The position numbers and the translations under genes were made by a program. A stretch of DNA of 35,448 bases from Catajapyx aquilonaris (taxonomy: Eukaryota): the NCBI GenBank assembly GCA_000934665.2, contig JYFJ02004026.1:1-35448 (forward strand), in the 5' to 3' direction. Shown here in pieces: positions 6,217 to 34,573 of the stretch. The number at the start of each line of letters is the position of its first letter. Position 1 is the first letter of the stretch. The notes beneath the pieces are model-generated. The model ran no database searches. It had not been told where the DNA came from and worked only from the letters and a program-made list of their open reading frames with translations.

Positions 6217-6266
<50 letters not shown>

Positions 6267-14580: not shown

Positions 14581-14854
14581 ATTGAAGTGCTGACAGGTTG
14601 GTTTTTTGTAGGTTTTTGTGGACTGGGTGGACGCTAGGGGCAGGCCCCGGGGCGAGTGGACCCGGGGCGGATGGACAGCCCCGGGGCGAAGTCCTCAGGT
14701 TGATTTATAAGGTAGATAAACACGTGCAAGTACTTCCATGTACTGATAAGTGTGTATGTAGTGTGCTCCATATGGACATTGCTCATGCTTAAATATTAAA
14801 TATTAACAATATTAATTGTCTCTTTACAGTGCTGCCCAGTGTGTGAACCGCCAG

Positions 14855-15724
14855 ATGGGAAACTGCATGTGGTTGCCTTTCATTAGATACTCAAACGATG
14901 ACGTGCATCGTTCGGATGGGAACCGGCCAAGTACCGCCAAGAAAGAAAAGGTATCTTTTTCAGCTAATTTCTTGTCGCATCCGCATTGGTTGCTTCAGGG
15001 CGGAAATTCGCAAACTACATCATGGATTTTTCACTCAGGCGAAGCTGAAGGACTTTATCGGAGCCTGCAAGAAGGGGCGGCTGGAAGTCGTGATGGAACT
15101 GGTTGAGGAGAGCAAAGGGCACGACAGACAGTTGATTCCATTGTTGGAGAGCAAAGGTATGAGCGGGCTTGAGATGGCGGCACAGCACGGAAGGCATGAG
15201 GTGGTCGGCTATCTTCTGAGCAAAGGATGGCCGGCGGACAGGTGCAAAGATAAGTGCCGGGGCTTGACTGCCCTCCACTTGGCTGCCCAGGAGGGACACT
15301 TCTCCGTATGCCAGGCCCTGATTAAGGCTGGAGCACCCGTTACTAAACATGACCAACTCATGGATCAGCCCATTCACTATGCTTCGAGGTCAGGTCACAC
15401 GCAAGTCATTGACTTGCTCATGAAGGGAGGGGTCTCCATGGGTTGTGTCGGTCGCCTCGACAATACGCCCCTACATCTGGCGGCAGGGAGAGGTCACCTG
15501 GACACAGTCGTCATGCTTATCGACAGAGGCGCTGATCCAACGGTGAAGAATGGGCAGGGGATGACTCCACTGGAATGCGCCAAGCTGGCGAGAAGAACCG
15601 AAGTTATCTGCTACCTGGAAGAGGTGAGAGATGCGGCAGGAGGTGTTGACTACCTACCCAAAAATGGCGGTAAGCTCGTCTTAATAAACTGCTTAAATTT
15701 CAGATTGTGAGTGCAGCTCGTTAG
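14855..15724 (+). CDS. Ankyrin-repeat protein, about 233 aa, N-terminal MGNC; coding exons 14855-14950, 15039-15623, 15704-15724
   Basis: About 5-6 ankyrin repeats (GLTALHLAAQEGH, DNTPLHLAAGRGH, GMTPLECA). Phase-0 introns AAG|GT..TCAG|GCG and GAG|GT..TCAG|ATT. Confidence 0.8.
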
Positions 15725-16797
15725 CATTCAGGACAGCTTCAAACCTCATCATATCATATGCTCGTCCAATGCAAGGAGGATTAATCGCAGCATCCATGTT
15801 GTAAATTAAGTGCTGGTTGTACGTTCAATGCCTAATGTTCAAATGTGGAAATGTGTTCAATGTACCTGAAGCCAGTGGCATAGCTAGGGTATGGCAAGTG
15901 TGGCACGTGCCCTGGGTGAAACTTGATGCTCCGTCACATGTCCAAACATTTTGACCGCAACAATTAGTGATGTATTTGCGTAACATCAGTCGTATTCGGC
16001 GACAGACGTTGTGTTCCATACAAGGTTTAATATGTTCAGTTTTAAGTCTGGTTCATGCATGGCTCGCAAGAAAATATCAGACAACATTTCGCAGATATAT
16101 CCAGTAATTTTCGGGGGGTCCAAATTCTTGGACTCGTGATTGATGGAATGCCAACCCATTATTCTGGTTATATTTTTCAGGAAAACCAATAACGTAGACG
16201 CATTCTCCTCGACTTTCTCTTTCATTGGATATATTATATGTTTGTTGCGCAATTTCAGTGCTTGCCATATGTGCTATTATCCATAGATATGCCACTGCCT
16301 GGATCATAATTTGTGATAATTTGTCATTCATGTATTCAGTGTCGCTACCCAACATCATTAGATATGGTTTATCATAATTGAAGGTGATCATATGCTTCCA
16401 ATATGTTTTTATTTATTTTCGGGTCTAATTAATACTAACAAGCAAATCTGCCGCTGTTGGTAGTTTCGGCAGGGAAGGCTCTTCTAATCTGCCGACGAGA
16501 TGTCCGTTGTTCCTAGTATTTGCCGTTCATGCACTTCTTCATGCACTGGCGGTATTTACCTGAAATAAATTATGGCAGCGTTACATACTGATTGTTAACA
16601 GCAATTGCTCATTACCCGATTTCACACTTGACAGTACAGTAATGAAATCAGCATAAATGATCAGTGTTCATTGATTACAAATTGGCATTGTGACTAGTGA
16701 TCAGTGAAGCTAATTTGTATGTGGCTGCTCATTCATTGTTTCAGTAAGTTAAAGGAGTCGATTACTTACATCTGGTAGCGGCAAGGTGGGAATATCA

Positions 16798-18449
16798 CTA
16801 GAATCCATGGGCAAATCCATGGCGACGTTGGTGACCTCCCAAGTTCATGGCCCTTTTTCCATCTCGGAAGAGACCCTTTTCGGCTTTCAACAACTTGGAT
16901 CCCACGCGGCCCAGAATATTCTCCTCAGAAGATGAGCTGGAGCTACTGCTGGAGCTACTACTGCTGCTGCTTGAGCTACTGTGATGACGAGCCTTTGGAT
17001 GTCTCGTGGTGTGTTTAGGTCCGTGGTGACCAGGTCGTGTAGGCTTGGTTACTGGACGTTTTGTGGTGGGTGTGTGTCCTGGTCTCCTAGTTGAGCTCCT
17101 TGGGTGATGTTCTTCCGAGCTTGAGCTTGAGCTTGAACTGGAACTGGAGCTATGCCCATGTCCTGGCCGCTTTGTGGTGTGTTTGGTAGGGTGATGCGTG
17201 GTTGGCTTAGATGGTTTTCTGGTGGTTGGCTTAGTACTCGGTTGCCCCGTGGTGGGTTTGGTTGTAGGTTTGGTAGTGGGTCGCCTTGTGGTCGAGGTGC
17301 TTTTTGGACTATGTTCTTCTGAACTGGAGCTGGAACTGGAGCTGGAACTACTCCCACTGTCTCCAGATCCTGGCCGTTTTGTGGTGTGTTTGGTAGGATG
17401 ATGCGTAGTTGGCTTAGATGGTTTTCCTGTGGTTGGCTTAGTACTAGGTCGTCCTGTGGTGGGTTTGGTCGTAGGTTTGGTTGTGGGTCGTCTTGTGGTC
17501 GATGTACTTTTTATATCATGTTCTTCTGAACTGGAGCTGGAGCTAGAACTACTTCCACTGTCTCCAGATCCTGGCCGCTTTGTAGTGGGTTTGGTAGGAC
17601 GACCTGTGGTTCCAGGATGTCCAGTGGTAGGCTTGGTTCCAGGACGGCCGGTTGTAGGCTTGGTGCTAGGTTTCCCTGTGGTGGGTTTGGTTCCTGGTTG
17701 TTTGGTTGTAGGCTTGGTACTGGGTCGCCTTGTGGTCGATGTGCTTTTTGGGCCATCTTCTTCTGAACTGGAGCTGGAACTGGAGCTGGAGCTGGAACTA
17801 CTCCCACTGTCTCCAGATCCTGGCCCCTTCGTAGTGGGTTTGGTAGGACGACCTGTGGTTCCAGGATGTCCAGTGGTAGGCTTGGTGCTAGGTTTCTCTG
17901 TGGTGGGTTTGGTTGTGGGTCGCCTTGTGGTTGATGTGCTTTTTGGACCATGTTCTTCTGAACTGGAGCTGGAACTGGAACTACTTCCACTGTCTCCAGA
18001 TCCTGGCTGCTTTGTGGTAGGCTTTATGGTTGTTGAACTGGATCCAGGCTTCTTAGTGGTTGAAGTGGTTCCAGGTTTATTGGTGGTTGAAGTAGACCCA
18101 GGCTTGTTAGTGGTTGAAGTGGATCCAGGTTTTGTTGTCGTGGGTGTGGATCCAGGTCGATCTGTTGTACATTTAGTTCCAGGTTGGCTTGTGGTTGGCA
18201 TAGATCCTGGAGAACTTGTGCTGGAAGTCTCTGGCTGTTTAGTTGATGATTTACCTTCGTGAGATCCAGATTCCGAGCTGCTTGATGAGGACGATCCTCG
18301 ACGATCTGTAAGTGCAAATATGATTAAAGTTAATGTTGAATTGTAATCACCATTTTACAGGTCTTACCTGGATCATCTTGAGCGGATCCAGCTGCGATCA
18401 GTCCAATCACAACCAAGCAGAACACCACTTTCCTGATCTTTGAAGCCAT
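16798..18449 (-). CDS. Secreted mucin/glue-like Thr-Lys-Pro protein with poly-Ser-EE blocks, copy 1, 529 aa (exons 18449-18368, 18305-16798)
   Basis: Signal-peptide exon MASKIRKVVFCLVVIGLIAAGSAQDDP, 62-nt phase-1 intron, long repeat ORF with 6 S(n)EE blocks. CAATAAAAGG TATA-like box near 18505. Confidence 0.9.
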
Positions 18450-18754
18450 GTTGAGGTCCAGATCCCACTGCTGAGTGTGAGGATTAACCTAGGGACTCCG
18501 GCCTTTTATTGCCACAATTGCTAGGTACGTAATCAGTTGATATACGGTACGTCACACCTGGTTGGTTTACGGGCGGACATGAACATGTGCGAGCAGGAAT
18601 TACCATTTTGCTTGTACTGTACGTCTGTACTGGGGCGATTTATTACTACAGAAATGTCACACTCTTGCAATGAATGGCTGTGAACAATGTAGGAAAATTC
18701 TGAGCAGACATTTTTCTACCAGATTGAGTGATAGACTGATAGAGGAAACATGTC

Positions 18755-18906
18755 AGGTGTGTTTACATGTGAGCGATTTGAACAACGAAATCTTCACCGA
18801 GGCTGAAATCAACAATCGATTTTCGCCTCAAACCATATTGATTACTTGGGTTACTCAGCCACGGCGAACGTATCGCTCGTCAAATCGCTCACATGTAAGC
18901 GCAGCT
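18755..18906. mobile_element. PIF/Harbinger-like MITE (second copy at 24675-24826)
   Basis: Long imperfect inverted arms GTTTACATGTGAGCGATTTGA..TCAAATCGCTCACATGTAA. Superfamily assignment is tentative. Confidence 0.55.
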
Positions 18907-19856
18907 TCATAACCTACAATAGCATTACCCATAAGCAAAAATTGAAAATATCAACCATCAAAATCAAACCCAAGTATTAATATTTCGGATCTTATCCAGT
19001 TTCACTAAGACCTATTCAACTTCATGCGTTAACAATTTAACTGGCAAACTTGGAAAGGCCATAAGTAAAATATGTTATAGCAGTTGTATATCTATATCTA
19101 TAAACTAGCAGCGGTACCCGTTCTTCGCACGGGGAAAAAAAGAGCGTGGATAATTACACAGAAATCTTCTTAGATCTCAAGCAATATTAAATGCAAAACT
19201 GCTCATTCCCTTGCATAATTATGTAGGCGCTGGAAGGGTGTAAAAATGCTGGTTTGTTTGCGTAATAAAGAGCCACGCAACTATGGCTATGTGGTTTTCA
19301 GAATACAAAAAGGTGGGACAGATGGAGAGAGAAACAAAGAGGAAAAAGAAGAGAGGAAAGACTGGTATCTCTCTTAGTCCGTCTCCTATCCCAAAGACAT
19401 GTCCAACTTGGGCGGCCCTACCAGTAGACGAAACTACCGCCGGCATAGCTCTTCAGGATCATGAGAAAACGCATGCCCACCACCACGGCAAGGTGGAGAT
19501 ACATTGGGGGAAGGGGCCATTAAAAAATTTGGATAAAGAAATTGGGGGAAGTGCAAAATTTGAAACCATTTATAGGCCTGTTTCTATGGTAATCACCAAC
19601 AAAATTCTGTTGCCACAGGCAAACAAATGTTATTTTTTTGCTTTACATACGTAGATTATCAAAATATGTTATTTATTAAATAATTTATAGCAGCAAACCC
19701 GTGTGTAGTGTCTGGTACATATGTTGAACCTGGTGTCAGTCAACGTACACACAGAAGTGATCGAAAGCGGAGGGATAATTGGACAGTGTTATGCAATAAT
19801 GGGTCAACCCACAAAAATGTCAAAATTGAGCCAAGCCCAGGAACATACACCCAAAG

Positions 19857-19930
19857 CAGAGGTTCTTAACCTTTTCGGGCCTCCGCACCCCTTTGTAGAC
19901 AATATATTGGTCCTTGTCGCACCCCCTATA
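19857..19930 (+). mobile_element. hAT-Charlie-like terminal fragment
   Basis: CAGAGGTTCTTAACCTTTT resembles Charlie-type TIRs; no partner end found. Confidence 0.4.
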
Positions 19931-20387
19931 CCAGGGGTGATTGATTACGTTCATTACGCCATTCCACATTAACGCCGGTTTGAAAATGACATAAAATTTT
20001 TAAAGTGAAAAATTGTGATAACGTGGAAATTATGATAGCCTGCTGGTTGTGAAGTGGCCAAGAAAGATTTCCCATGCGGGAAGTACCCGTTTTATGCCGC
20101 TCCATTTTACGCCGTTTCGCATTAACCCTGGTTTTAAAATTACATTTGAAAATTTTGTATCAGAATTTTTTTAAAAAATATTTGATGACAACACAATCTG
20201 AACATGAAGGCATCACTTCAACACTTCTGATGAGACCAAACGGACGAACGTATACCTGCTCTTCTTTCCTCTGTGCCTTGTGGCAGGTTCTATCGATATA
20301 TGAACTGTGCAGTACTGTATTGTTCGGTATTGTTGATCTCGGCACTCCCCGAAGTACTCCAACCGTTAATTATTGTTACAATACCCT

Positions 20388-20549
20388 ACGTGTCAAGGGG
20401 GGTAATCACTCGACTGAAAAGTGTACACTGGAGTACCAAATTCAAGGAGTACCACGGAGTAATAAAGAGTGAGGTGTCTGAGGAGTACCAGGGATTACCA
20501 CTCCCAGGTGTACACCGGAGTACCGTAGTGATTACCCCCTTGCTACGTG
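20388..20549. mobile_element. Small MITE-like inverted-repeat element
   Basis: CAAGGGGGTAATCACT..AGTGATTACCCCCTTG inverted termini with internal GGAGTACC repeats. Confidence 0.5.
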
Positions 20550-20826
20550 TACTGCAATTATTATTCTTGCCAACCTGCCCGTTGTTCTATTGTTTTCATT
20601 GTTGAATATGCAATGTTGATTTCATTTTAGAACGTGAGTGAGAGAGGCAGATCCATCCTTTGGGCTTGTTGACAGCCAGGGTTGCTAGGCAATTGCTTAA
20701 TCTGCTGAAAACCCCCCGTAGACTCAAAAGAGTTCGAGTTTGGGACTTTTCTCGTGGTCAGTGATATGTAAGACATGGCTCTGAGAAATTTGAGCGCTCT
20801 CCGTACCCGGGAAGTGGCTTAATTAG

Positions 20827-22257
20827 CAGTGGCGGAGCCAGGAGGGTGCTAGGGGGTGCGCAAGCACCCCTTTGAATAACCTCCGCACCCCCTTTCGCAC
20901 ACCTAAAAACGTGTCAAATAAAAGAGCAATTTTTAAAAAAATGTTCAGTACGCATTTTCCGGTCGGCACTTTAATGCAGTAAGTATAGGCTATACAGTAC
21001 GCTACAGGGTATATACAGGGAGCATATCACATGGTGAGTCCGTAACCACTAACCAGGCATGGGCGAATCTGACTCAACAGCTAGCAAACTGCCGTCCATC
21101 ATTATTGCAGAACCCATGCAGCGCGGGGGAGAGGGGGGGGGGGGGGGNACTCGAAAAGGCCGTGTTTCAAGCAGACTTTGGCTTTGAGTTACAGACAGGC
21201 ACCGCTCCGGTACCGCTCTCTCATCTAGGGATGGTTGCGACGGGTCCACCAGATGCAACAACCCATCTGGAGATACCGGAAGGATGGCAGTTGTACAGTT
21301 CGATTTATGAAGCTTGTTAGAACGATCACGGGGTAGGCTAGTCCTGCTCAAAGGTATATAGGTCAGCATTTCTTCACCGAGAAGTGACACTTGACAAATC
21401 ACGGTACTTCGTTCCTGTTCCTAATGGCCCACGCGCACCTTTGCTGGAATAATAATAATAAAAGGACACAATAATAAATAACAAAAAATTCAACAACCCC
21501 GGGTACTTTTATGGGCGTCTCTTTGCATTTCTGCCAACAATACGAATCTCCTGGTGTCGGAAACATTTGCATAGTGATTCGTGCTGAAGACAAGCACCAG
21601 CATGATAGGGTTACTTTTTTTGTCTTCAGTGTAATAGTAATATTATGCTGGCGCTATTTGTGACATATCTGTCACGAATCACGTATGCAAAATAATGTTT
21701 CCGACACCAGGAGATTCGTATTTGTTGTCCGAAATGCAATAACGAGACGCCCATAAAAGTACCCGGTGTTGTTCAATTTTTTGTTACTTATTATTGTGTC
21801 CATTATTATTATTCCAGCAAAGGTGCGCCATTAGGAACAGGAACGAAGTTCCGTGATTTGTCAAGTGTCACTTCTAGGTGAATAAATCCTGACCTGTACG
21901 CCTACCTTTGAGCAGGACTTATACCCCGCGATCGTTCTAACAAGCTTCATAAATCGTACAACTGCCCTCCTTCCGATGCATGTTTCTCCGGAATGTTGCA
22001 TCCGGTGGACCCCCCCCGAAATGTTTTAAATAGCATTAGAAATTACTAATTCCTGATTTATTTATTTTTGAAAAAGTGCTACCAATTTCATCAAATACAC
22101 ACCCATTCAAATTTCACATATTCACCTAAACTCGTGTGACCTTGAACCCCCAAAAATTCCCCCCCCCCCCCNCCCCCCCCCAAAATCGAAGCATCTCTTG
22201 CTAACGTTCGAGTCCCTTAACCGCACCCCTTGATATCTGAGGCTGGCTCCGCCACTG
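20827..22257. mobile_element. Non-autonomous hAT element
   Basis: Perfect 15-bp TIR CAGTGGCGGAGCCAG / CTGGCTCCGCCACTG with perfect 8-bp TSD TTAATTAG (20819-20826, 22258-22265). Confidence 0.9.
21242..22012. repeat. Foldback element: about 340-bp inverted arms with about 90-bp spacer
   Basis: 21242-21583 is an imperfect reverse complement of 21673-22012; termini GGGTCCACC / GGTGGACCC. Confidence 0.85.
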
Positions 22258-22837
22258 TTAATTAGGCGTGACATACATTAATACGTACAAATATTGAGCT
22301 TTATATATATGGGGATTATCCATAGATATGCCACTGCCTGGATCATAATTTGTGATAATTTGTCATTCATGTATTCAGTGTCGCTACCCAACATCACCAG
22401 ATATGGTTTATCATAATTGAAGGTGATCATATGCTTCCAATATGTTTTTATTTATTTTCGGGTCTAATTAATACTAACAAGCAAATCTGCCGCTGTTGGT
22501 AGTTTCGGCAGGCAGGGCTCTTCTAATCTGCCGACGAGATGTCTGTTGTTCCTAGTCTTTCCCGTTCATGCACTTCTTCATGCACTGGCGGTGTTTACCT
22601 GAAATAAATTATGGCAGCGTTACATACTGATTGTTAACAGCAATGGCTCATTACCCGATTTCACACTTGACAAGTAGAGCAATGAAATCAGCATAAATGA
22701 TCAGTGTTCATTGAGTACAAATTGGCATTGTGACTAGTGATCAGTGAAGCTAATTTGTATGTGGCTGCTCATTCATTGTTTCAGTAAGTTAAAGGAGTCG
22801 ATTACTTACATCCGGTAGCGGCAAGGTTGGAGTATCA

Positions 22838-24369
22838 CTAGAATCCGTGGGCAAATCCACGGCGACGTTGGTGACCTCCCCAGTTCATGGCCCTTTTTCC
22901 ATCTCGGAAGAGACCCTTTTCGGCCTGCAACAACTTGGATCCCACGCGGCCCAGAATATTCTCCTCAGAAGATGAGCTGGAGCTACTGCTGCTACTGCTG
23001 CTGCTGCTGCTTGAGCTACTGTGATGCCGAGCCTTTGGCTGTCTGGTGGTGTGTTTAGGTCCGTGGTGGCCAGGTCGTGTAGGCTTGGTTACAGGCCGTT
23101 TTGTGGTGGGTGTGTGTCCTGTTCTCCTAGTTGAGCTCCTTGGGTGATGTTCTTCCGAGCTTGAGCTTGAGCTTGAACTGGAACTGGAGCTATGCCCATG
23201 TCCTGGCCGCTTTGTGGTGTGTTTGGTAGGGTGATGCGTGGTTGGCTTAGATGGTTTTCTGGTGGTTGGCTTAGTACTAGGTCGCCCCGTGGTGGGTTTG
23301 GTTGTAGGTTTGGTAGTGGGTCGCCTTGTGGTCGAGGTGCTTTTTGGACTATGTTCTTCTGAACTGGAGCTGGAGCTGGAGCTGGAGCTGGAGCTGGAGC
23401 TGGAACTACTCCCACTGTCTCCAGATCCTGGCCGTTTTGTGGTGTGTTTGGTAGGATGATGTATAGTTGGCTTAGATGGTTTTCCTGTTGTTGGCTTAGT
23501 ACTAGGTCGTCCTGTGGTGGGTTTGGTTGTGGGTCGCCTTGTGGTCGATGTACTTTTTGGATCATGTTCTTCTGAACTGGAGCTGGAGCTGGAGCTGGAG
23601 CTGGAGCTAGAACTACTTCCACTGTCTTCAGATCCTGGCCGCTTTGTAGTGGGTTTGGTAGGACGACCTGTGGTTCCAGGATGTCCAGTGGTAGGCTTGG
23701 TACTAGGTTTTCCTGTGGTTACAGGATGTCCGGTGGTAGGCTTGGTGCTAGGTTTCCCTGTGGTGGGTTTGGTTGTGGGTCGCCTTGTGGTCGATGTGCT
23801 TTTTTGATCATGTTCTTCTGAACTGGAGCTGGAGCTGGAGCTGGAACTACTTCCACTGTCTCCAGATCCTGGCTGCTTTGTGGTAGGCTTTATGGTTGTT
23901 GAACTGGATCCAGGCTTCTTAGTGGTTGAAGTTGTTCCAGGCTTGTCGGTGGTTGAAGTGGTTCCAGGTTTATTGGTGGTTGAAGTTGACCCAGGCTTGT
24001 TAGTGGTTGAAGTGGTTCCAGGCTTGATGGTTGTTGAACTGGATCCGGGTTTTGTTGTCGTGGGTGTGGATCCAGGTCGATCTGTTGTACATTTAGTTCC
24101 AGGTTGGCTTGTAGTTGGCATAGAACCTGGAGAACTTGTGCTGGAAGTCTCTGGAGGTTTAGTTGATGATTTGCCTTCGTGAGATCCAGATTCCGAGCTG
24201 CTTGATGAGGACGATCCTCGACGATCTGTAAGTGCAAATATGATTAAAGTTAATTTCGAATTGTAATCACCATTTTACAGGTCTTACCTGGATCATCTTG
24301 AGCGGATCCAGCTGCGATCAGTCCAATCACAACCAAGCAGAACACCACTGTCCTGATCTGTGAAGCCAT
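22838..24369 (-). CDS. Secreted mucin/glue-like protein, copy 2, 489 aa (exons 24369-24288, 24225-22838)
   Basis: Near-identical signal exon, intron and C-terminus to copy 1; 5 S(n)EE blocks. Confidence 0.9.
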
Positions 24370-24903
24370 GTTGAGGTCCAGATCCCACGGCTGAGTGTGA
24401 GGATTAACTGAGGGACTCCGGCCTTTTATTGCCACAATTGCTAGGTACGTAATCAGTTGATATACAGTATGTCACACCTGGTTGGTTTACGGTCAGACAT
24501 GAACATGTGCGAGCAGGAATTACCATTTTGCTTGTACTGCAGGTCTGTACTGTGACGATTTATTACTACAGAAATGTCACACTCTTGCAATGAATGGCTG
24601 TGAACAATGTAGGAAAATTCTGAGCAGACATTTTTCTACCAGATTGAGTGATAGACTGATAGAGGAAACATGTCAGGTGTGTTTACATGTGAGCGATTTG
24701 AACAACGAAATCTTCACCGAGGCTGAAATCAACAATCGATTTTCGCCTCAAACCATATTGATTACTTGGGTTACTCAGCCACGGCGAACATATCTCTCGT
24801 CAAATCGCTCACATGTAAACGCAGCTTCATAACCAACAATAGCATTACCCATAAGCAGAAATTGAAAATATCAATCATCAAAATCAAACCCAAGTATTAA
24901 TAT

Positions 24904-25186
24904 AATAATAATAATAATTCGTACCCCGTGACAAGCCGGCGGCTTTTTAGGGGATTTTTTTTGTTTTGTCTGGAACTCTTCGCTTTCACTTTTTACTTAG
25001 CTTTTTGGGATAGGATAGGGACGGAAGGCTGTGGCCTATTTTTACGGAAACAACTCCGGAATTCTCCTGGAGGAACCGTGGGAAACCACAGAAAACCACG
25101 GTTAGAGTTGCCGGCACCAGGATTCGAACCCAGGACCTCCCGATTAGCAGTCGGACTCCTTAACCACTACACCAACTGCTTCGGTT
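24904..25186 (-). mobile_element. tRNA-derived SINE, family A
   Basis: A box and B box (GGTTCGAATCC), (ATT)n tail, 15-bp TSD CCCAAGTATTAATAT. The empty site is visible in the paralogous sequence near 18968. Confidence 0.9.
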
Positions 25187-25686
25187 CCCAAGTATTAATA
25201 TTTCGGATCTTATCCAGTTTCACTTAGACACATTCAACTCCATGCTTTAACAATTTAACTGCCAAACTTGGAAAGCACATGAGTAAAATATATTATAGCA
25301 GTTGTATATTTCTTCGAAAATAATTGGTATATATGCTGCAATTGATAAATCTAATTTTTATTGTTGCCTTCATTGTTTTGCTCTTCATATCTCTAGAGAT
25401 ACACTGCCAAATCAGGTATATCGGGATATCGCAAGGAAAACAAAGATGTATGGAATATTGGAATGATAGGTGATCCCTGTACATCACCAACATAATCAGA
25501 TCATATTATGTTATTACAAAGAGGAACGGTTTTTTTCCCACTTCCATAACAAGAAGTGACCTTCCATAAAATGTTCTGGTACTTATTTCAACCTAAGAGA
25601 AATGTATTTTATTAGCCACTTCTGGAAACTGAGTCACGCTGGACTACACTTGGCAGGGATACGTATGTTAATTGTCAATCTTATTA

Positions 25687-25939
25687 GGGCAACACGGTGG
25701 CAGAGTGGTTAGCGCCGCAGCCTTCCACCTCTAAGGTCCCGAGTTCGATCCCCGGACCGGACAGAGTATGCTTATGTGGATAGAGTTTCGATGGGTTCTC
25801 TCCGTGTTCGCGTGGGTTTTCTCGGGGAACTCCCGTTTCCTCCCGCTATCAAAATCCATCACAGCGCAGGCAATGATTAAAGTCGGTTAAATAAAAGATG
25901 ATCCCCTAAGAGGCCCAAGGAGGCCTAGCACGGGGTATC

Positions 25940-26015
<76 letters not shown>

Positions 26016-26024
26016 GTTATTATT
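25687..26024 (+). mobile_element. tRNA-derived SINE with V/Meta-SINE-like core
   Basis: TGGCAGAGTGG A box, GTTCGATCCC B box, core GTTCTCTCCGTGTTCGCGTGGGTTTTCTCGGGGAACTCCCGTTTCCTCCC, long (ATT)n tail, 16-bp TSD ATTGTCAATCTTATTA. Confidence 0.9.
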
Positions 26025-26216
26025 ATTGTCAATCTTATTACACTCAAAATTGGTCAGAAGTTGGTCTGATCACATGCTTCATGTCCTCGGTGGAACTAAT
26101 TGTCTCTCTCTCAAAATCATGTTACGGCAATAAAAATAAGGATTGTTCTTAAATGTGCGCCGCGCCACTTCTTCGTGCAACATGTTCCTAGTGTATGCAA
26201 TGCGTGTAATCTATAG

Positions 26217-26300
26217 AAGCTCGTCAAACTGCTTATAAATTTCAGATTATGAGTGCATCTCGTTAGCTTTCAGGACCGTTTCAAACGTCATCATATCACA
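26217..26300 (+). pseudogene. Remnant of the ankyrin gene's last intron and terminal exon
   Basis: AAATTTCAGATTATGAGTGCATCTCGTTAGC aligns with 15695-15725; no upstream exons are present. Confidence 0.7.
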
Positions 26301-26317
26301 CATCCTTGTCCGATGTA

Positions 26318-26371
26318 TTTTATTCTATTTATTTTTAATTTAATTTACCCCGTGTTCGAGCCTTTGGCTCG
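26318..26371 (-). mobile_element. 5'-truncated retroposon tail
   Basis: CGAGCC-aaa-GGCTCG hairpin, ACGGGGTA, A-rich tail; 18-bp TSD ACATCCTTGTCCGATGTA. Confidence 0.8.
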
Positions 26372-26407
26372 ACATCCTTGTCCGATGTAAGAAGGTTGAA
26401 ATGTATA

Positions 26408-26708
26408 ATAATGATAATAATAATAATAACATCTTACCCCGTTATCAGCCTTTTTCGGCTCTTTAGGGGGGGGTTTTTGTTTTGTCTGGAACTCTTGCTT
26501 ACATGTTTACTTTTTGCTTTTTGGGATAGGATAGGGAAGGAAGGAGGCGGCTGTGGCCTTTTAAATTAGAAAGCAACCCCGGAATTCTCCTGGAGGGACC
26601 GTGGGAAACCACAGAAAACCATGGTTAGAGTTGCCGGCCCTGGGGCTCGAACCCAGGACCTCCCGGTTAGCAGTCGGACCCTATAGCCACTCCGCCAAAC
26701 TGCTTCGG
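26408..26708 (-). mobile_element. tRNA-derived SINE, family A
   Basis: Aligns with 24904-25186; near-perfect TSD TTGAAA(T/A)GTATA. Confidence 0.88.
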
Positions 26709-27305
26709 TTGAAAAGTATATTTCAACATGGAGGTCGTAAATTAAGTGCTGGTCTACTTGTATATTCAATACCTGTTTACAACATGCAATTTAAATGTGA
26801 AATGTGTTCAATGTGCATGGGGCATTGTGCTAATTTGTTGTTCATGTATTGAGTGTCATTACACAACATCAAGAGATATGGTTTATCATTAGTGAAGGAG
26901 ATCGTACGTTTCCAATATGTTTTTATTTATTTTAATGTCTAATTAATGCTAACAAGCTCATCTGCCGGTGTTTGGCAGCCAAGGCTCTTCTAATGAAATC
27001 TGCTGACGAGATGTCCGTCGTCCCTAGTCTTCGTCGGTCATGCACTTCTTCATGCACTGGCGGTATTTACCTGAAACGAATTAAGGCAGTGTTACATACT
27101 GATTGTTAACAGCAATTGCTCATTACCCTGTTTCACACTTGACACTACAGTAATGAAATCAGCATAAATGTCAGTCAGCAATGATCAGTGTTCAATGAGG
27201 ACAAATTGGCCTTTCTTGACTAGGACTACTTTTATGTGTCTGCTCATTGATTCAGTAAGTTAAAGGAGTCGATTACTTACATCCGGTAGCAGCAAGGTGA
27301 GGGTA

Positions 27306-29890
27306 TTAGTAGATACCTTGCACAAATCCAGGGCGACGTCGGCGGCCTCCCCAGTTCCTACCTCTCTTCCCACCTCGGAAAAGATCCTGTTCGCCCTTCA
27401 ACAACTTGGATCCCACTCGGCCCAGAATATTCTCCTCAGAAGATGAGCTGGAGCTACTGCTGGAGCTACTGCTGCTGCTTGAGCTACTGTGATGCCGAGC
27501 CTTTGGATGTCTCGTGGTGTGTTTAGGTCCATGGTGACCAGGTCGTGTAGGTCTGGTTACTGGACGTTTTGTGGTGGATGCGTGTCCTGGTCTCCTGGTT
27601 GAGCTCCTTGGGTGATGTTCTTCCGAGCTTGAACTGGAACTGGAACTGGAGCTATGCCCATGTCCTGGCCGCTTTGTGGTGTGTTTGGTAGGGTGATGTG
27701 TGGTTGGCTTAGATGGTTTTCTGGTGGTTGGCTTAGTACTAGGTCGCCCTGTGGTTGGCTTCGGTTGTGTTGTTGTAGGTTTGGTTCCTGGTCTCCTGGT
27801 TGAGCTCCTTGGGTGATGTTCCTCCGAGCTGGAACTGGAGCTGGAACTGGAGCTATGCCCATGTCCTGGCCGCTTTGTGGTGTGTTTGGTAGGGTGATGG
27901 GTAGTTGGCTTAGATGGTCGTACAGTGGTTGGTTTAGTACTAGGTCGTCTAGTGGTTGGTTTGAGTTGCGTTGTTGTAGATTTCGTAGTGGGTCGCCTTG
28001 TGGTCGATGTGCTTTTTGGACCATGTTCTTCCGAGCTGGAGCTGGAGCTGGAGCTGGAACTACTCCCACTATGCCCATGTCCTGGTCTCTTTGTGGTTGG
28101 CTTGGTAGGGCCAACTGTGGTTCCAGGATGTCCTGTGGTAGGTTTGGTTCCAGGATGTCCTGTGGTAGGTTTGGTTCCAGGATGGCCGGTTGTAGGCTTG
28201 GTGCTAGGTTTCCCTGTGGTGGGTTTGGTTCCTGGTTGTTTGGTTGTAGGCTTGGTACTGGGTCGCCTTGTGGTCGATGTGCTTTTTGGGCCATCTTCTT
28301 CTGAACTGGAGCTGGAACTGGAACTACTGCCACTGTCTCCAGATCCTGGCCCCTTCGTAGTGGGTTTGGTAGGACGACCTGTGGTTCCAGGATGTCCGGT
28401 GGTAGGCTTGGTGCTAGGTTTCCCTGTGGTGGGTTTGGTTGTGGGTCGCCTTGTGGTCGATGTGCTTTTTGGATCATGTTCTTCTGAACTGGAGCTGGAG
28501 CTGGAGCTACTTCCACTATGCCCATGTCCTGGTCTCTTTGTGGTGGGTTTGGTAGGGTGAGCTGTTGTAGGCTTGGATTCAGGACTAGCTGTTGTAGGCT
28601 TGGTGCTAGGTCGCCCAGTGGTAGGTTTGGAACTTGGTCGCCTTGTGGTCGATGTGCTTTTTGGGCCATGTTCTTCTGAGCTGGAGCTGGAGCTGGAACT
28701 GGAACTACTTCCACTGTGTCCAGATCCTGGCCGCTTTGTGGTTGGCTTTCTGGTTGTTGAACTGGAACCAGGCGTCTTAGTGGTTGAAGTAGTTCCAGGC
28801 TTGTTGGTGGTTGAAGTAGACCCAGGCTTGTCAGTGATTGAAGTGCTTCCAGACTTTATGGTTGTTGAAGTAGTTCCAGGCTTAGTGGTTGAAGTGCTTC
28901 CAGGCTTAGTGGTTGAAGTGCTTCCAGGCTTAGTGGTTGAAGTGCTTCCAGGCTTAGTGGTTGAAGTGCTTCCAGGCTTAGTGGTTGAAGTGCTTCCAGG
29001 CTTTATGGTTGTTGAAGTAGATCCTGGCTTGTGAGTGGTTGAAGTAGACCCAGGCTTCTTAGTGGTTAAAGTGCTTCCAGGGTTTATGGTTGTTGAAGTA
29101 GTTCCAGGCTTAGGGGTTGAAGTGGTTCCAGGTTTATTGGTTGTTGAAGTAGACCCAGGCTTGTCAGTGGTTGAAGTGCTTCCAGGCTTTATGGTTGTTG
29201 AAGAAGACCCAGGCTTAGTGGTTGAAGTGGTTCCAGGTTTATTGGTGGTTGAAGTGGTTCCAGGTTTATTGGTGGTTGAAGTGGTTCCAGGTTTATTGGT
29301 GGTTGAAGTGGTTCCAGGTTTATTGGTGGTTGAACTGGATCCAGGCCTCTTAGTGGTTGAAGTAGTTCCAGGCTTGTTGGTGGTTGAAGTGGTTCCAGGT
29401 TTGTGAGTGGTTGAAGTAGACCCAGGCTTGTCAGTGGTTGAAGTGCTTCCAGGCTTAGTGGTTGAAGTGGTTCCAGGCTTTATGGTTGTTGAAGTAGATC
29501 CCGGCTTGTGAGTGGTTGAACTGGATCCAGGCCTCTTAGTGGTGGTTGAAGTGGCTCCAGGTCTTGTTGTTGTGGGTGTGGATCCAGGTCGATCTGTTGT
29601 AGATTTAGTTCCAGGATGACTTGTGGTTGGCGTAGAACCTGGAGATCTTGTGCTGGAAGTCTCTGATGAACACGGGCGTTTAGTTGATGATTTGCCTTCA
29701 TGAGATCCAGATTCCAAGCTGCTTGATGTGGACGATCCTCGACGATCTGTAAGTGCAAATATGATTAAAGTTAATGTCGAATTGTAATCACCATTTTACA
29801 GGTGTTACCTGGATCTTCTCGAGCGGATCCAGATGCGATCAGCCCAATCACAACCAAGCAGAACACCACTGTCCTGATCTTTGAAGCCAT
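27306..29890 (-). CDS. Secreted mucin/glue-like protein, copy 3, 840 aa (exons 29890-29809, 29746-27306)
   Basis: Signal exon MASKIRTVVFCLVVIGLIASGSAREDP, expanded KPG(S/T)TSTT repeats, 7 S(n)EE blocks. Confidence 0.9.
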
Positions 29891-30655
29891 GTTGAGGTCC
29901 AGATCCCACTGCTGAGTGTGAGGGTTAACCGAGGGACTCCGGCCTTTTATTGCCACAATTGCTAGGTACGTACTCAGTTCATATAGGTCATAGCTGGTTG
30001 GTTTACGGTCGGATTTGAACATGTGCGAGCAGTAATTGCCATTTTGCTCGTACTGTAGGCCTACTGGGTATGTTCCGAACAATTTATTGCGACAGATATG
30101 TCACGCTCTTGCAATGAATGGCTGTGAACAGTGCTAGGGTTCATTGTTGGAAAAATTTGAGTGCAATTTATGGTCGCGGATTGGTCCTTGCCATTCCTAG
30201 TAAATTTAAACTGTCACAATATGACTTTTTTTTGGCGTTTAATAAATCATGTCGTAACAAAATTATGTGACATCTGTGATTTTGACATTTTCAGTACAGG
30301 AGTTGCTTATAATAATGTGTTGTGTAAAACATGTGCCTTTATACTTGATACATCATGCTGTATACGAAGCAAAAGAAAATGATTCCATATTTGATATTAT
30401 AAAATGTCAGGGATAAGTGTTTGGACGTAGGTGATGAAGCAAAGATTTGGTTATTTTTCTGGAACAAAAATATGGGCCAAAGACAAGGTAATGACAAAGA
30501 AATTGTACATTAAAATTCATATTTTAATGTTGTCGAATATTATGGTAAATGTTTTAACCATATTGTACTATACTAGGCATTTTTACACCACGAGGAAAGT
30601 CTGTAACTATAAAGAGATATTACAGTCATGTTGTAATTATTACATAATTAAATAT

Positions 30656-31020
30656 ACCATCAAACGGGGTGAGATTGTGCCACTTTTTGCGGTTTTTGGT
30701 TTGCAAGCAAACCAGAGTAATTGATATATCGAATCGAATATTTTATACGACATTGCTAGTCTCTCACCTTTCAGATCAAACTTGAAATTAATTTTTTTAT
30801 CTACTAAGAGAGGAGAGATATAAATTATTTTCCATGCCACAATTTCACCCCGTTGAGTGGGGTGAGATTGGGCCAGCCTATTTAAATTCTTGAAATGAGT
30901 AGGAAACTATAGTCATGGGTATACTCTCTGTAAAAATTAGCATCTTCAATATGTGATGATTTTTTTTTGAAACATGGCGCAATTAAAAACAGTGTAGTTA
31001 ACGAGGTGAGATTGTGCCAC
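30656..31020. mobile_element. DNA-transposon/MITE remnant
   Basis: TCAAACGGGGTGAGATTGTGCCA is inverted at about 30835-30856 and repeated near 30858 and 31002. The segment is absent from the paralogous block near 34730. Confidence 0.5.
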
Positions 31021-31248
31021 TGTGTTTCCCCAATTTCCCCCATTATTTCATTGATTTTCATGTGTGACAGTGATGGGAAAAGTTTACGTGAAGAAGTTCG
31101 GTCGGAATCTTTGGCAGAAAACATGGCTGACCGAATCACTGGCTCAAAAATATGAAAATTGCAATGGCATTAATTTTTCCTTTTGGGAAATGGCGCCGTA
31201 CGTGTGCCGTCCGATTTTTAATTGTCAACTCCACAGTCACAGTCGGTT

Positions 31249-31477
31249 GCCGAAGCAGGTTGGCATAGTGGATAGGGCGTCCGACTGCTAATCGGGAGGT
31301 CCTGGGTTCGAATCCCGGGGCCGGCAACCATAACCGTGGTTTTCTGTGGTTTTCCACGGTCTTTCTAGAATAATTCCGGGGTCACTTCCGTATAATAGGC
31401 CACAGCCGCTTCCTTCCTTCCCTATCCTTGGAGGTTGAATGGCAAATGCTGGGCCAACCTCCTTAAATATCAATTAA
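31249..31477 (+). mobile_element. tRNA-derived SINE, family A head with a different 3' tail
   Basis: TGGCATAGTGG and GGTTCGAATCCC boxes, same body as 24904; 14-bp TSD AGTCACAGTCGGTT. Confidence 0.9.
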
Positions 31478-32666
31478 AGTCACAGTCGGTTCGATCAGGT
31501 TCAAAGTTCACGAGCAATGTCACCAGAAGTCAAATGGAATATTTGCAACTTAAAACATTTTATTACAATAATTACACAACATTTTGTAGTTACGTCACTC
31601 TCATCTGGAGCCGTCACATTGTCATCGACTCCACTTCTCACAGGGTGAAGTAGTTTACTTTGAGGACAATAATTATTATTTGCTTGTATGACTAGTAGTT
31701 GTGACAACTTCACTGAAAAAAAACAACTGATTTATGCATAGGTAATCACAATACGAGATCAGGAGATTTTCTATCTAATTTAAGTCGATTCAAATTGTTT
31801 CACAGGCCTCTTCACATATTATTGTTAATTTTCAATCATATGTGAAGCAATATTAATAATTTTGTCACTGGCGATGAAGCTCATATAATTTTTCATTATT
31901 GTAAAAAAAATTATTTTGGTTCACAATATTGTGTAATTAAGCAAACAAGGCAGGAAAGAGCCTCACAGGGCTTTTAGCACCATGATATTCACAATTTTGT
32001 GAATTTTAATATATAAAATATTTATGATGGCTACTTATTAGAGCACCTTCTCACTCAATTTGTTGCACATTCATAGGTGTGATCGACTGCTTGAAGTGAT
32101 GGCATTCGTAGTGAACAGTAAACAATTTCAACAATCGACCTTGGCATTAATTGAAATTCAAGTTGCGAGAAGATTATTACATGGAAAATTTTGCATGATA
32201 AAGATTGGATAATGTTTGACTTTTCGACCAATTTTGCAGCCATGCTAGGATTGATCAATCAGAAATTGGGTTTTCCTAATCATGTGACATTATTTTGTAG
32301 AAACAATGTCAAATAATAGTGATATACTTGTCATGTAGCTGTCTGTTAAGTACGTACATTGCCTTTCATTACTTTCCAATGAGCTTTTTAAATATTTTTC
32401 TCTGCAGGACCCAAATATTTTTTTATCCATACACTTCAGATCACCTATACACAATAAATAGCATCATATCATTTTATCATGCCTTTATTATACTGATACG
32501 TGACTACAAATTAGCATTAATACTTTGACCCATAATTATGGACAGGTTTCAACATAATATAATTCCGATGACATTGCACACACTTGCATGGTACATTACA
32601 TTTTATATTATATTTCACATAATTTGTATAGTAATAATTGAAGAAAAAGTTGCATAAGTATGTATC

Positions 32667-33490
32667 TTACCCGAAGTTAGTCATTGCCTTAAACATTTTC
32701 TTGCCCGCGCTCATCATATCATCATTCTTTTTTCCCTTCTTGGAATCTTTACTTTCATCACTAATTGAAATGCTGATGCTGAAGGATTCTGATGAGTCAC
32801 TGGACTTATGTTTCTTATTTGAGCCTTTCTTGCCCGAGCCAGATTTGTCATCTGAAGACTTGTCCTGACCTCCAGGAAACAAATTATTCTTACCACCTTC
32901 CTTTGAAATGCTCATTGAGAAACTCTCATCACTACTTGGAAACTTGGCTGTAAAATCATCTTTCTTTGGAAAGCTGGCTGAAAAACTATCATCTGACATG
33001 CTCATTGACATGCTACCATCATCCTTTCCATTTCCGGACATTTCCTTACTGAACGAAATACTGAGTGAATCTGACTCTTTGGACTTGCTGGAATCGTCAT
33101 GTTTGGAGAAGTGATCTTTAAAGTCGTGTATCTTGTCCGAAATGTTGTGCTCCGCTTGATTCATTTTGCTGGCAGCGTCCTTTGCTTCTTCCGAGCTGAA
33201 GCTGGGCTTGCTGATGTCCATGCTGATTGATTCAGAAGAAGAGGATGAGCTGCTTGCATGCTTCTGCGATGCTGAAGAGTCGCCTTTTGACTCAGAAGAA
33301 GATGATGGCCTTTCAGTTGTCGGCTGGACCCAGAATCCTGTAATGATAAAAGGTGGCTTATTTTATCACAGGCACAGAAGACAGTTTGGATCCAAAAGCA
33401 ACCCCTTTTTAAAAAAAAAGTCTTACCCATGTTGCCATGAGCCAATCCTACAATGATGAGTCCGGCCAAGATGAACGAGAGAGGAGCCAT
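32667..33490 (-). CDS. Secreted Ser/Asp/Lys-rich protein with (Ser-X)n motifs, about 244 aa (exons 33490-33427, 33337-32667; 3' end may be spliced)
   Basis: Signal exon MAPLSFILAGLIIVGLAHGNM and phase-1 intron join in frame to the 184-aa ORF. GATATAAGG TATA near 33556. The apparent stop lies inside GG|GTAAGA, a probable splice donor. Confidence 0.85.
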
Positions 33491-34203
33491 GTTCTGCTTG
33501 GTTTGGTAGGGATCTGATTCCAAGTGTGAGTCTATCCATTGGAGGACCCTTCCTTATATCTCCAAAAATGGGGACGTCACACGGTGCTGAACACTTGCGA
33601 GGAGAAACATTGGGTGATATATAGTAGCAGAATGTGTCTGGCTGTGTTGACGAATGGCTGTTGGGCTAGGTGGGAACAATGGCTGGGTTGACTCCAGATG
33701 AAATTATGGGCGGATTTGATGTGACTCTGCGGTCATGGGCAGTCGCATGTCATCCTGGATGGGTTTATTTTGTCAAGGGCACATTTTGCGTCATACTACT
33801 CCAACAGATGGGATTGACGAGCGGATTTTGAAGTAGGCCTATGTATGCCTTTTTAGCTTTGGTGCTTTGTCTCTTTGGTGGAACGTTTTGTGGCAGCTAA
33901 TAAAGTTGTACTACAGTATAGGCACATTCATATTAGACTAGTAATATTCTGTACATAAGGGCAAACTATCAATGATATAATTGATGCTTTATTGGCTTCA
34001 AAAATGATAAAATACATGATTTAAATGATTATAAATCATTAAATTATAAAATGTCGGGGCAATGTTTTTGGACGTTGCTGGTGACGATGCAAAGATTTAG
34101 TTATTTTCTAGAACAAAGATATGGGCCAAAGACGAGATAATGACAAATATATTCAATATAAAATACATATTTTAATGTATTGTTGGATGCAACAGTGAAA
34201 TAT

Positions 34204-34573
34204 TATTTTTTAATTATTTTTATTTTTATTTTTAAATATTTCGTACCCCTTGATGGCCCTCTATGGGCCTTTCGGGGGGTGGCAGACCACCATACAGTTT
34301 TCTATTTAACTTCAATCTCCGTGCAACGACTGGTTCAGGATATAGGGTAGGGAAAGGGATTGTTGGGGAGGGGACACTTGTGCAGGTGCATTGTCCTATG
34401 GCTTTTGGGCCATGTGCAGTCCCCCAGGAGGTTAGGTTGCCAGACACCTCCTTGGTGCAGGTCAGAGACCCTCCCGACGCAGGTGAAAGGAAAGTTCCCC
34501 AGGCGGGGATCGAACCTGGGGCCTTTTCACTCAGCAAGCCGTGACGTTACCATCACGGCCACCACACCTCCCC
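34204..34573 (-). mobile_element. tRNA-derived SINE, third family
   Basis: TGGCCGTGATGG A box, GGTTCGATCCCC B box, hairpin+GGGGTACG+A-rich tail; 15-bp TSD GCAACAGTGAAATAT. Confidence 0.88.

Follow-up and report, generated by a model that had tools for sequence, protein, structure and literature searches.

Four tandem genes for secreted serine-block proteins in Catajapyx aquilonaris: a candidate family of phospho-mucin block polyampholytes

What kind of secretion would be made by four neighboring genes whose products pair a signal peptide with long blocks of serine? We addressed this question for a 35,448-nucleotide stretch of DNA from Catajapyx aquilonaris (contig JYFJ02004026.1, referred to at its full length as the window), in which four co-oriented genes, A to D, fill positions 16798 to 33490 of the minus strand, from the stop codon of A to the ATG of D. 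An earlier note, made from the sequence alone, had proposed a phosphoserine-based glue, cement, or silk cluster, and the four tandem minus-strand genes that it described, each with a TATA-like box, a signal-peptide exon, and a phase-1 intron, are present where it had placed them. Our best explanation is that A to D are a lineage-restricted tandem family of secreted, disordered phospho-mucin block polyampholytes (A, B, and C) with a small acidic partner (D), which together would form an ionically cross-linked secretion. For this whole chain of inference we estimate a probability of roughly 0.4.

All four genes follow one plan, in which a TATA-like box precedes a signal-peptide exon and a short phase-1 GT-AG intron separates that exon from a single large coding exon. 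Joining the exons gives a single open frame with one terminal stop in each gene, for products of 529 (A), 489 (B), 840 (C), and 244 (D) amino acids; the stop-to-stop open reading frames (ORFs) with Ser/Thr/Pro-rich frames span 518, 478, 829, and 231 codons, respectively. The intron after exon 1 is 62 nt long in A, B, and C and 89 nt long in D, and ends in ACAG in all four. In A, B, and C the TATA-like box AATAAAAG lies 61 nt 5' of the ATG (18510, 24430, and 29951), and that of D, GATATAAGG, lies at 33560, 70 nt 5' of its ATG. A, B, and C have a further intron of 210 to 211 nt in the 3' untranslated region (3'UTR), starting 25 to 28 nt past the stop codon. These models were compared, over positions 16000 to 35448, with the contigs of one public sequencing run of unrecorded kind, here called X1, the only run found to contain part of the stretch (0.27 of sampled words). 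Because its contigs are spliced, X1 was treated as RNA derived. The features of the four genes are as follows.

18503 to 18510, minus strand: gene A TATA-like box (AATAAAAG), 61 nt upstream of the ATG
18368 to 18449, minus strand: gene A exon 1, coding, with start codon (ATG 18449) and signal peptide; ends in phase 1
18306 to 18367, minus strand: gene A intron 1, 62 nt, GTAAGA..ACAG, phase 1
16798 to 18305, minus strand: gene A exon 2, coding, stop codon at 16798 to 16800
16560 to 16769, minus strand: gene A 3'UTR intron, 210 nt, GT..AG, donor 28 nt past the stop; X1 joint 16555 to 16766, cut +4
16000 to 16559, minus strand: gene A exon 3, 3'UTR only; a 597-nt X1 contig aligns at 16000 to 16553, and the 3' limit is provisional
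24423 to 24430, minus strand: gene B TATA-like box (AATAAAAG)
24288 to 24369, minus strand: gene B exon 1, coding, signal peptide (ATG 24369)
24226 to 24287, minus strand: gene B intron 1, 62 nt, phase 1, excised in an X1 contig
22838 to 24225, minus strand: gene B exon 2, coding, with five Ser-run-EE modules
22599 to 22809, minus strand: gene B 3'UTR intron, 211 nt; X1 joint 22594 to 22806, cut +4
29944 to 29951, minus strand: gene C TATA-like box (AATAAAAG)
29809 to 29890, minus strand: gene C exon 1, coding, signal peptide (ATG 29890)
29747 to 29808, minus strand: gene C intron 1, 62 nt, GTAACA..ACAG, phase 1, predicted and without a listed X1 joint
27306 to 29746, minus strand: gene C exon 2, coding, about 30 9-mers of the PGSTSTTNK type, then seven Ser-run-EE modules
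27071 to 27280, minus strand: gene C 3'UTR intron, 210 nt, predicted from homology to A and B
33552 to 33560, minus strand: gene D TATA-like box (GATATAAGG)
33427 to 33490, minus strand: gene D exon 1, coding, signal peptide (ATG 33490)
33338 to 33426, minus strand: gene D intron, 89 nt, GTAAGA..ACAG, phase 1, excised in an X1 contig
32667 to 33337, minus strand: gene D exon 2, coding, a Ser/Lys/Asp-rich acidic protein
16801 to 16920 (A), 22841 to 22960 (B), and 27309 to 27431 (C), minus strand: conserved C-terminal segment of about 40 residues

Read by eye, the N-termini of A to D consist of Met, a basic or short n-region, a hydrophobic core of 12 to 14 residues, and a small-residue cleavage motif; in A, the n-region carries K/R and the small-residue c-region ends in GSA. 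From these sequences, all four products are predicted with high confidence to be secreted. Exon 3 of A carries AATAAA/ATTAAA signals at 16417 and 16031. In the promoters, we also observed a 9-mer, GTGTGACGT, which contains a TGACGT half-site like that of the cyclic AMP response element and occurs only twice in the window, at 18557 and 33582 on the minus strand. Both sites fall in the promoters of A and D, 22 to 47 nt 5' of the TATA-like box, with a mismatch in B and no counterpart in C. This sharing was noticed post hoc, is by itself not significant, and was not used as evidence. A common origin of the D promoter with those of A, B, and C, which had looked suggestive in a MAFFT alignment, was rejected: its local score of 20 was also attained by 266 of 2,000 shuffles and by 30 of the 196 control windows taken from real sequence.

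Past the signal peptide, A, B, and C share one order of parts: a short Ser tract, the PGSTSTTNK-type 9-mers, a series of modules, and a 40-residue C-terminus. The 9-mers, counted as regular-expression matches, number 4 in A, 6 in B, and 30 in C, where they form a 27-nt tandem array at 28756 to 29561. Six modules follow in A, five in B, and seven in C, each made of a basic Thr/Pro arm, a linker, a Ser run of 9 to 18 residues, and EE. The arms (43 to 77 residues) are rich in Thr, Pro, Lys, and Arg, include KPTT and STTRRP motifs, and carry +9 to +14 Lys/Arg against 0 to 3 acidic residues; His becomes more frequent toward the C-terminus, from 1 to 2 residues in the N-terminal arms up to 9 in the final Thr/Pro arm. 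Linkers are mostly GSGDSG in the N-terminal modules and mostly His-rich GHGH, GHGHSG, or ARHH in the C-terminal ones. Arm charge and block length are roughly matched. By composition, the large exons of A, B, and C encode 22 to 27% Ser, 20 to 26% Thr, 11 to 12% Pro, 15 to 16% Lys plus Arg, and about 5% His. Each mature chain of A, B, and C contains a single Cys, and Tyr occurs 0, 0, 1, and 0 times in A, B, C, and D, in agreement with the earlier statement that Tyr is almost absent and chemistry based on 3,4-dihydroxyphenylalanine (DOPA) unlikely.

Every Ser run of at least 8 residues in A, B, and C (18/18) ends in EE. The proposal of three block copolymers, in which cationic TTKP/TTRRP/His-rich arms alternate with poly-Ser-EE blocks, is thereby confirmed across the 18 modules, although the 18 runs sit in paralogous modules and hence are not 18 independent events. 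The flanks of the runs are likewise conserved, with GSGDSG or GHGH before and EEH or EED after, followed by PKSTSTTRRP or PRSSTRRP. The Ser runs use alternating AGY and TCN codons, with four or five distinct codons per run. Of the five runs aligned between A and B, three are unequal in length, always by an even number of Ser. Given this alternation and these even differences, hexamer slippage appears to change the length of the runs while the pattern at the protein level is kept.

These features bear on a plainer account, in which A, B, and C would simply protect or lubricate an epithelium as ordinary mucin-like glycoproteins, with O-glycans that hold water and Ser runs that are slippage-prone spacers, phosphorylated incidentally or not at all. 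Like secreted mucins with Pro/Thr/Ser-rich (PTS) domains, the three are secreted-type proteins with a signal peptide and copy-variable tandem repeats in which Ser, Thr, and Pro make up 58 to 60% of each protein. The spread of 9-mer copy number among the paralogs (4, 6, and 30) is typical of mucins, the Ser runs are hexamer built and show even-numbered length differences, and database searches matched only the PTS stalks of unrelated proteins. Against this account, all 18 runs keep EE and their conserved flanks across paralogs that have diverged by 14 to 18% in noncoding DNA, and the rough match between arm charge and block length is left over. Regular phosphorylation-type Ser blocks and high Lys/Arg/His content also set A to C apart from secreted PTS mucins. 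Furthermore, the domains of gel-forming mucins and peritrophins (VWD, C8, TIL, cystine-knot, SEA, and CBM14/chitin-binding peritrophin) were absent from A to D in a Pfam scan. We consider the plain-mucin account rather unlikely but a serious competitor.

The relationship among the three large genes was examined by pairwise comparison. A, B, and C arose as paralogs by tandem duplication and have evolved under purifying selection, with approximate ratios of nonsynonymous to synonymous substitution (dN/dS) of 0.23 to 0.26 over 447 to 487 aligned codons. C is 88 to 94% identical to A or B in coding parts and 82 to 86% identical in promoter and 3'UTR, and the structure of promoter, intron, and 3'UTR is conserved across all three. 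Self-comparison of the window placed the limits of the duplicated unit at about 550 nt 5' of the ATG and at the 3'UTR exon, and detected no further copies within the window. Two noncoding parts of the unit stood out on inspection. Intron 1 (18306 to 18367, 24226 to 24287, and 29747 to 29808) is identical at 60 of 62 bases in each pair among A, B, and C, more than the flanking coding sequence or the C promoter (82 to 94%); gene conversion, or an element that acts in regulation or splicing, could account for this. The untranslated exon 3 is also well conserved (97% between A and B and 84% relative to C).

Transcription of the locus was assessed with X1. One contig skips the intron of B at 24225 to 24288 (62 nt; depth, 41.5), where the CT..AC ends of the plus strand read GT..AG on the minus strand, and another skips that of D at 33335 to 33426, with one extra letter at the joint that can be explained by a synonymous A>G difference at 33336. 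A gap of about 210 nt also occurs in contigs directly 3' of the stop codons of A and B, and allowing for a 4-nt ambiguity both gaps are canonical GT..AG introns; A and B are about 97% identical around them, and one contig may fit both. These spliced contigs match predicted junctions and thereby show that D, and either A or B or both, are transcribed and spliced. Contigs over C could derive from its paralogs and cannot establish expression of C itself. X1 coverage is empty, and uninformative in both directions, in the bins at 21192 to 21840, 29629 to 30277 (which includes exon 1 of C), 33523 to 34171, and 34821 to 35448. Among the 12 listed of the 25 insertions and deletions that distinguish X1 from the window, the three in coding exons are 3 nt each (16955, 32815, and 33119) and the nine elsewhere are 1 to 2 nt.

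These data speak directly to whether the open frames are genes at all or a by-product of noncoding tandem repeats, as could be suspected from the ORFs of 80 to 432 amino acids that overlap the same DNA in other frames or on the other strand. That view is scarcely tenable: contigs spliced at minus-strand GT..AG borders link the ATG exon to the Ser/Thr frame, the frame runs open from ATG to stop in all four models, the listed coding insertions and deletions are in frame, dN/dS is about 0.25, and promoter, intron, and 3'UTR structure is conserved in three paralogs.

If the blocks are not simply spacers, what could the EE ends do? Kinases of the Fam20C type phosphorylate S-x-E/pS (where pS is phosphoserine) and polyserine, according to two published studies (PMC7948968, PMC12621633), and the statement in the earlier note that S-x-E/pS is the FAM20C site, together with its polyserine chemistry, is thus backed by experiment. 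The former source also describes action on the polyserine of phosvitin without Glu (PMC7948968). Work on the Caenorhabditis elegans kinase FAMK-1 adds that phosphoserine substitutes for Glu, such that a Ser stretch N-terminal to EE is a predicted Fam20C target; that a proteome search for SSSEE led to secreted lectins, in which FAMK-1 acts on Ser runs that precede EE; that one of these, CLEC-233, has nine Ser before EE; and that changing EE to AA lowered phosphorylation of six of six secreted lectin substrates tested (PMC6829671). By this comparison, the S(n)-EE design corresponds to an experimentally established target form of Fam20C-type secretory kinases, including in an invertebrate. A to D have signal-peptide-like N-termini, and both S-x-E/pS and Ser-run-EE motifs occur, as in Fam20C-type substrates. 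By analogy, phosphorylation of the Ser blocks of A to C is somewhat more probable than its absence.

The extent of the potential sites was estimated by applying the S-x-E/pS rule as a chain. In this way 85 of 125 Ser can be reached in A, 85 of 124 in B, 88 of 182 in C, and 28 of 63 in D, compared with means of about 5 and maxima of 15 to 19 in 1,000 shuffles; relative to the mature chains, the reachable Ser amount to 85 of 501 (A), 85 of 461 (B), and 88 of 812 (C) residues. Without phosphorylation, and with His not counted, net charge is +55 for A, +48 for B, and +98 for C; computed at full phosphorylation (-2 per site), it becomes -115, -122, and -78. Partial phosphorylation would therefore give chains of near-balanced, block-segregated charge.

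The same sites could also belong to mineral-handling phosphoproteins, which bind Ca2+ or calcium phosphate or carbonate through phosphoserine clusters, as do caseins, phosvitin, osteopontin/DSPP, and invertebrate shell or skeleton proteins. The S(n)-EE and S-x-E architecture fits such a role too. A mixture of Ser runs with His, Lys, and Arg is reminiscent of phosvitin, and tandem small secreted genes with a separate signal-peptide exon recall the vertebrate SCPP/casein cluster, which consists of tandem secreted genes with SXE sites and phase-0 exons. According to PMC7948968, Fam20C substrates are prominent in biomineralization, and there is evidence for a Fam20 kinase in the formation of the pearl oyster shell. 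On the other side, long cationic and probably glycosylated arms, and an unphosphorylated net charge of +48 to +98, are atypical of acidic matrix proteins, and the Pfam scan found no vitellogenin, casein, lectin, or other known matrix domain. The introns of A to D are phase 1, unlike those of the SCPP cluster, and the CpG observed/expected (o/e) ratio of 0.66 together with the PACRG comparison described below argues against a vertebrate. In phosvitin and vitellogenin, the polyserine domain is part of a large lipid-transfer protein with Vitellogenin_N and VWD; neither domain was found by Pfam, and A to C are complete at 489 to 840 amino acids. Mineral handling is in our view unlikely.

The fourth protein, described by the earlier note as Ser/Asp/Lys-rich, indeed consists of 28% Ser, 14% Lys, and 11% Asp, with Phe, Met, and Ile present. 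D has two Ser runs ending in E-S, an SSEE site, and five tracts in which Ser alternates with hydrophobic residues and which end in K-E, D-D, or D-E. Words of the form S-hydrophobic-S-hydrophobic-S occur 10 times against 0.22 expected, and none of 5,000 shuffles reached 10. An AlphaFold2 model of D from a single sequence, of low confidence, is mostly disordered (mean predicted local distance difference test score, 52), with two helices at residues 48 to 77 and 206 to 219 of the exon 2 product and no strands, and lends weak support to disorder.

The tracts of D invite comparison with caddisfly heavy-chain fibroin (H-fibroin), whose (pSX)n motifs are phosphorylated and form beta domains stabilized by metal ions, as reported in PMC6302954 (see also PMC13267644). 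Three of the five tracts of D end in an S-x-E register that would allow chain phosphorylation, resembling the motifs in these sources. However, D is a Lys/Asp-rich protein of 244 amino acids rather than a fibroin of about 350 kDa, and it has no GGX/GPGX spacers, no detected homology to H-fibroin, and no strands in the AlphaFold2 model. Of the traits of H-fibroin, D has the (SX)n tracts, and lacks the Gly-rich spacers, giant size, and homology.

For A to C, the nearest chemical counterpart is sabellariid cement, which combines polyphosphoserine Pc-3/Sa-3 with basic, His-rich partners, condensation by Mg/Ca, a proposed pH switch, and FAM20C in the cement cells (PMC12621633). The two systems share long Ser runs, with phosphorylation in the secretory pathway presumed or known in the cement and predicted for A to C. 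They differ in that A to C alternate polyanion and polycation in one chain, whereas the described cement uses separate proteins. The arms of A to C are Thr/Pro-rich and mucin-like, unlike the Gly/Tyr/Lys-rich cement proteins, and with 0 to 1 Tyr in A to D, DOPA curing is not possible. The Ser runs of Pc-3/Sa-3 are punctuated by Tyr. Database searches yielded no homolog of A or D, with no direct pairwise comparison made to Pc-3/Sa-3. In the adhesive examples known to us, polyanion and polycation are always placed on separate proteins. Among Fam20C/FAMK-1 substrates (CLEC-233, caseins, and phosvitin), a signal peptide occurs together with a Ser run before EE, as in A to C; in CLEC-233 this run is nine residues long. 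These substrates have one or few sites in folded or unrelated proteins, in contrast to the five to seven regularly spaced long blocks of A to C, which account for 16 to 27% of the mature chain.

The cationic arms have a counterpart of their own in the Drosophila salivary gland secretion (Sgs) genes. According to PMC6352337, these genes for secreted proteins lie in tandem, carry a short phase-1 intron close to the signal peptide, encode KPTT-type repeats that change rapidly in number, and yield a glue of disordered glycoproteins. A to C share tandem arrangement, a phase-1 intron, and KPTT-type Thr/Pro/Lys repeats with the family of Sgs1, Sgs3, Sgs7, Sgs8, and Eig71Ee. The likeness to Sgs3 drawn in the earlier note is no more than a resemblance, in repeats and intron phase. 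In other respects the two differ: the Sgs intron is described as interrupting the signal peptide, and in A, B, and C it lies five codons past the predicted cleavage site; the Sgs C-termini are described as conserved and Cys-rich, and A to C have one Cys per mature protein; Sgs proteins have no S(n)-EE blocks; and the protein database searches gave no sequence match to Sgs1, Sgs3, Sgs7, or Sgs8. In addition, the present genome is not Drosophila-like, with short interspersed elements (SINEs) derived from tRNA and a CpG o/e ratio of 0.66.

Outside the Ser blocks, two parts of A to C raise the question of whether the proteins are processed precursors, either core proteins of proteoglycans that bear glycosaminoglycans on the Ser-Gly of GSGDSG or pro-proteins that release an amidated, cationic C-terminal peptide. 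GSGDSG precedes 8 of the 18 Ser runs, and Ser-Gly beside acidic residues resembles glycosaminoglycan attachment sites. The C-terminal segment of about 40 residues is nonrepetitive, cationic, and conserved in A, B, and C; its Gly-Lys-Arg and Arg-Arg sites look like prohormone-type cleavage and amidation signals, and it may form an amphipathic helix. However, the other 10 linkers lack the exact GSGDSG (one GSEDSG, one GSGHSG, and eight His-rich linkers of the GHGHSG, GHGH, or ARHH kind), searches found no homology to peptide precursors or proteoglycan cores, and the dominant conserved S(n)-EE modules stay unexplained. A precursor role of either sort is very improbable.

Relatives of A to D were sought in several collections. 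Pfam assigned no family to A, B, or C and gave only a subthreshold PdaC match for D (18 bits, against a cutoff of 29.1). A word-indexed search of 5.8 billion proteins, at near lengths, returned 335 candidates for D and 7,998 scored candidates for A, none at an E value of ≤0.001; ESM Atlas gave no usable match for A or D, and among metagenome contigs, 90 pattern matches to D and 539 to the last 100 residues of A yielded none that was confirmed. A HMMER search with A over 1.84 billion representative sequences gave 31 hits at an E value of ≤0.001, with the best stretches all in PTS repeat or arm regions. The seven of 31 that were inspected are unrelated PTS or short-repeat proteins without S(n)-EE, among them an adhesion G protein-coupled receptor-like protein with a mucin stalk and bacterial surface proteins, and were rejected as homologs. 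The possibility raised in the earlier note that the termini belong to an ordinary mucin family was not borne out: database searches matched them to no characterized mucin, peritrophin, or other family. No self-match appeared, which suggests that the proteome of this genome is not in these collections, and the shortage of relatives may therefore partly reflect poor sampling of the lineage. In full-text literature, with figures and supplements not covered, peptide strings of A to D were not found apart from the generic Ser-run-EE string in the C. elegans FAMK-1 paper and a preprint, nor did open-access papers and preprints, under the same limit, contain cationic arms fused to EE-primed polyserine blocks with a His gradient. 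On the best reading of their sequences, A to D fit no known family and are lineage restricted. By function they are of a known kind, that of secreted Fam20C-type phosphoproteins and mucin-like glue proteins.

Taken as phospho-mucin block polyampholytes, the proteins would be made as follows. After cleavage of the signal peptide, the arms of A, B, and C, with their KPTT, STTRRP, and PGSTSTTNK repeats, would be O-glycosylated in the manner of mucin PTS domains, a modification that we consider probable, if far from assured. A Fam20C-type kinase of the Golgi would then phosphorylate the Ser runs processively, backwards from the C-terminal EE primer: the first Ser modified would be that two residues before a Glu, and each new phosphoserine would prime the Ser two residues before it. 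The product would be a chain in which polycationic arms (+9 to +14 Lys/Arg per 43 to 77 residues) alternate with polyanionic phosphoserine blocks, and the rise of His toward the C-terminus would add charge that can be switched by pH. Such a block polyampholyte should condense with itself and with divalent cations in secretory granules, to give an ionically cross-linked extracellular material. D would be the small acidic partner, whose Ser-hydrophobic tracts, phosphorylated by the same chain rule, might form cation-bridged beta structure as in caddisfly silk.

Several points weigh against this interpretation. The Ser runs are built of an AGC-TCC-like hexamer, and slippage may partly maintain their length. 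Secreted proteins rich in Pro, Thr, and Ser are usually plain hydrating mucins. With Tyr essentially absent, the DOPA curing of sabellariid and mussel cements is unavailable. The dN/dS values are approximate, since the aligned sequence is repetitive, and A and B are 95 to 97% identical in coding and noncoding sequence alike, so this pair, which appears to be a recent duplicate or the result of conversion, is little informative on selection. X1 carries no tissue label, and the depth of its contigs cannot rank the expression of the genes. With these points in mind, an adhesive, cement, or structural-material role for A to D, suggested by analogy, is plausible but tentative. More doubtful still is the idea that the cluster represents an independent invention, in which a one-chain complex coacervate with glycosylated cationic arms, EE-primed polyphosphoserine, and a His-based pH trigger is clustered with a caddisfly-type (SX)nE protein. 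Equally speculative is its corollary, by which the chemistries of sandcastle-worm cement and caddisfly silk would have converged without DOPA in a single-component, self-coacervating adhesive or fiber matrix.

The window has a G+C content of 43% and a CpG o/e ratio of 0.66, and the genes that neighbor the cluster are unrelated to it, at the following positions.

3517 to 4573, plus strand
7531 to 10701, plus strand
11541 to 11846, plus strand
13277 to 14130, minus strand
14847 to 15710, plus strand

Two are C2H2 zinc-finger genes, one of which follows an exon with a MADF domain; the others are a PACRG exon, an RNPS1-like gene that combines an RRM with a Ser-rich exon, and an ankyrin-repeat ORF. 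The PACRG exon shares about 77% identity with its sea urchin and bovine counterparts and scores 100.8 bits against sea urchin and about 98 bits against mammals. Together with the CpG o/e ratio and the 62-nt introns, these near-equal scores make an invertebrate source probable. A protein search with the ankyrin ORF gave 340 hits, from bacteria to animals, and all of the 120 listed were at most 38% identical.

SINE copies derived from tRNA-Ser(GCT) occur at 24930 to 25200 (minus strand), 26440 to 26720 (minus strand), and 31230 to 31480 (plus strand), with a possible, poorly aligned copy at 34250 to 34560; two of them match tRNA in Rfam (31 and 38 bits), and one is recognized as tRNA-Ser by ARAGORN. 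A search for the SINE pattern in prokaryote genome contigs gave 0 matches. Word depth in X1 reaches about 660 to 2,300 in the SINE bins, compared with tens elsewhere, which indicates that the element is highly repeated, transcribed, or both. At 5695 to 6298 the window carries a very long microsatellite of (TAC)n-like type, with about 200 units and 68% matches, and at 25941 to 26027 an (ATT)29 array. An inverted repeat of about 680 nt and 78% identity (1277 to 1883 and 2106 to 2763) possibly represents the terminal repeats of a transposon. Single N bases stand at 21148 and 22172, in intergenic DNA between A and B.

Secreted proteins rich in phosphoserine underlie wet adhesives and tough fibers, such as sandcastle-worm cement and caddisfly silk, as well as calcium handling by casein, phosvitin, and the proteins of dentin and bone. 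Should A to D prove to be plain mucins, the finding would be an ordinary one. If the interpretation as phospho-mucin block polyampholytes is correct, the cluster would be a compact genetic blueprint for self-coacervating materials, with roughly charge-matched blocks, a pH-titratable His gradient, and no need for DOPA, and it would offer a clean substrate for the study of processive phosphorylation by Fam20C. Since A to D have no detectable relatives, the locus is also an example of how repeat proteins evolve, de novo or rapidly, through tandem duplication.

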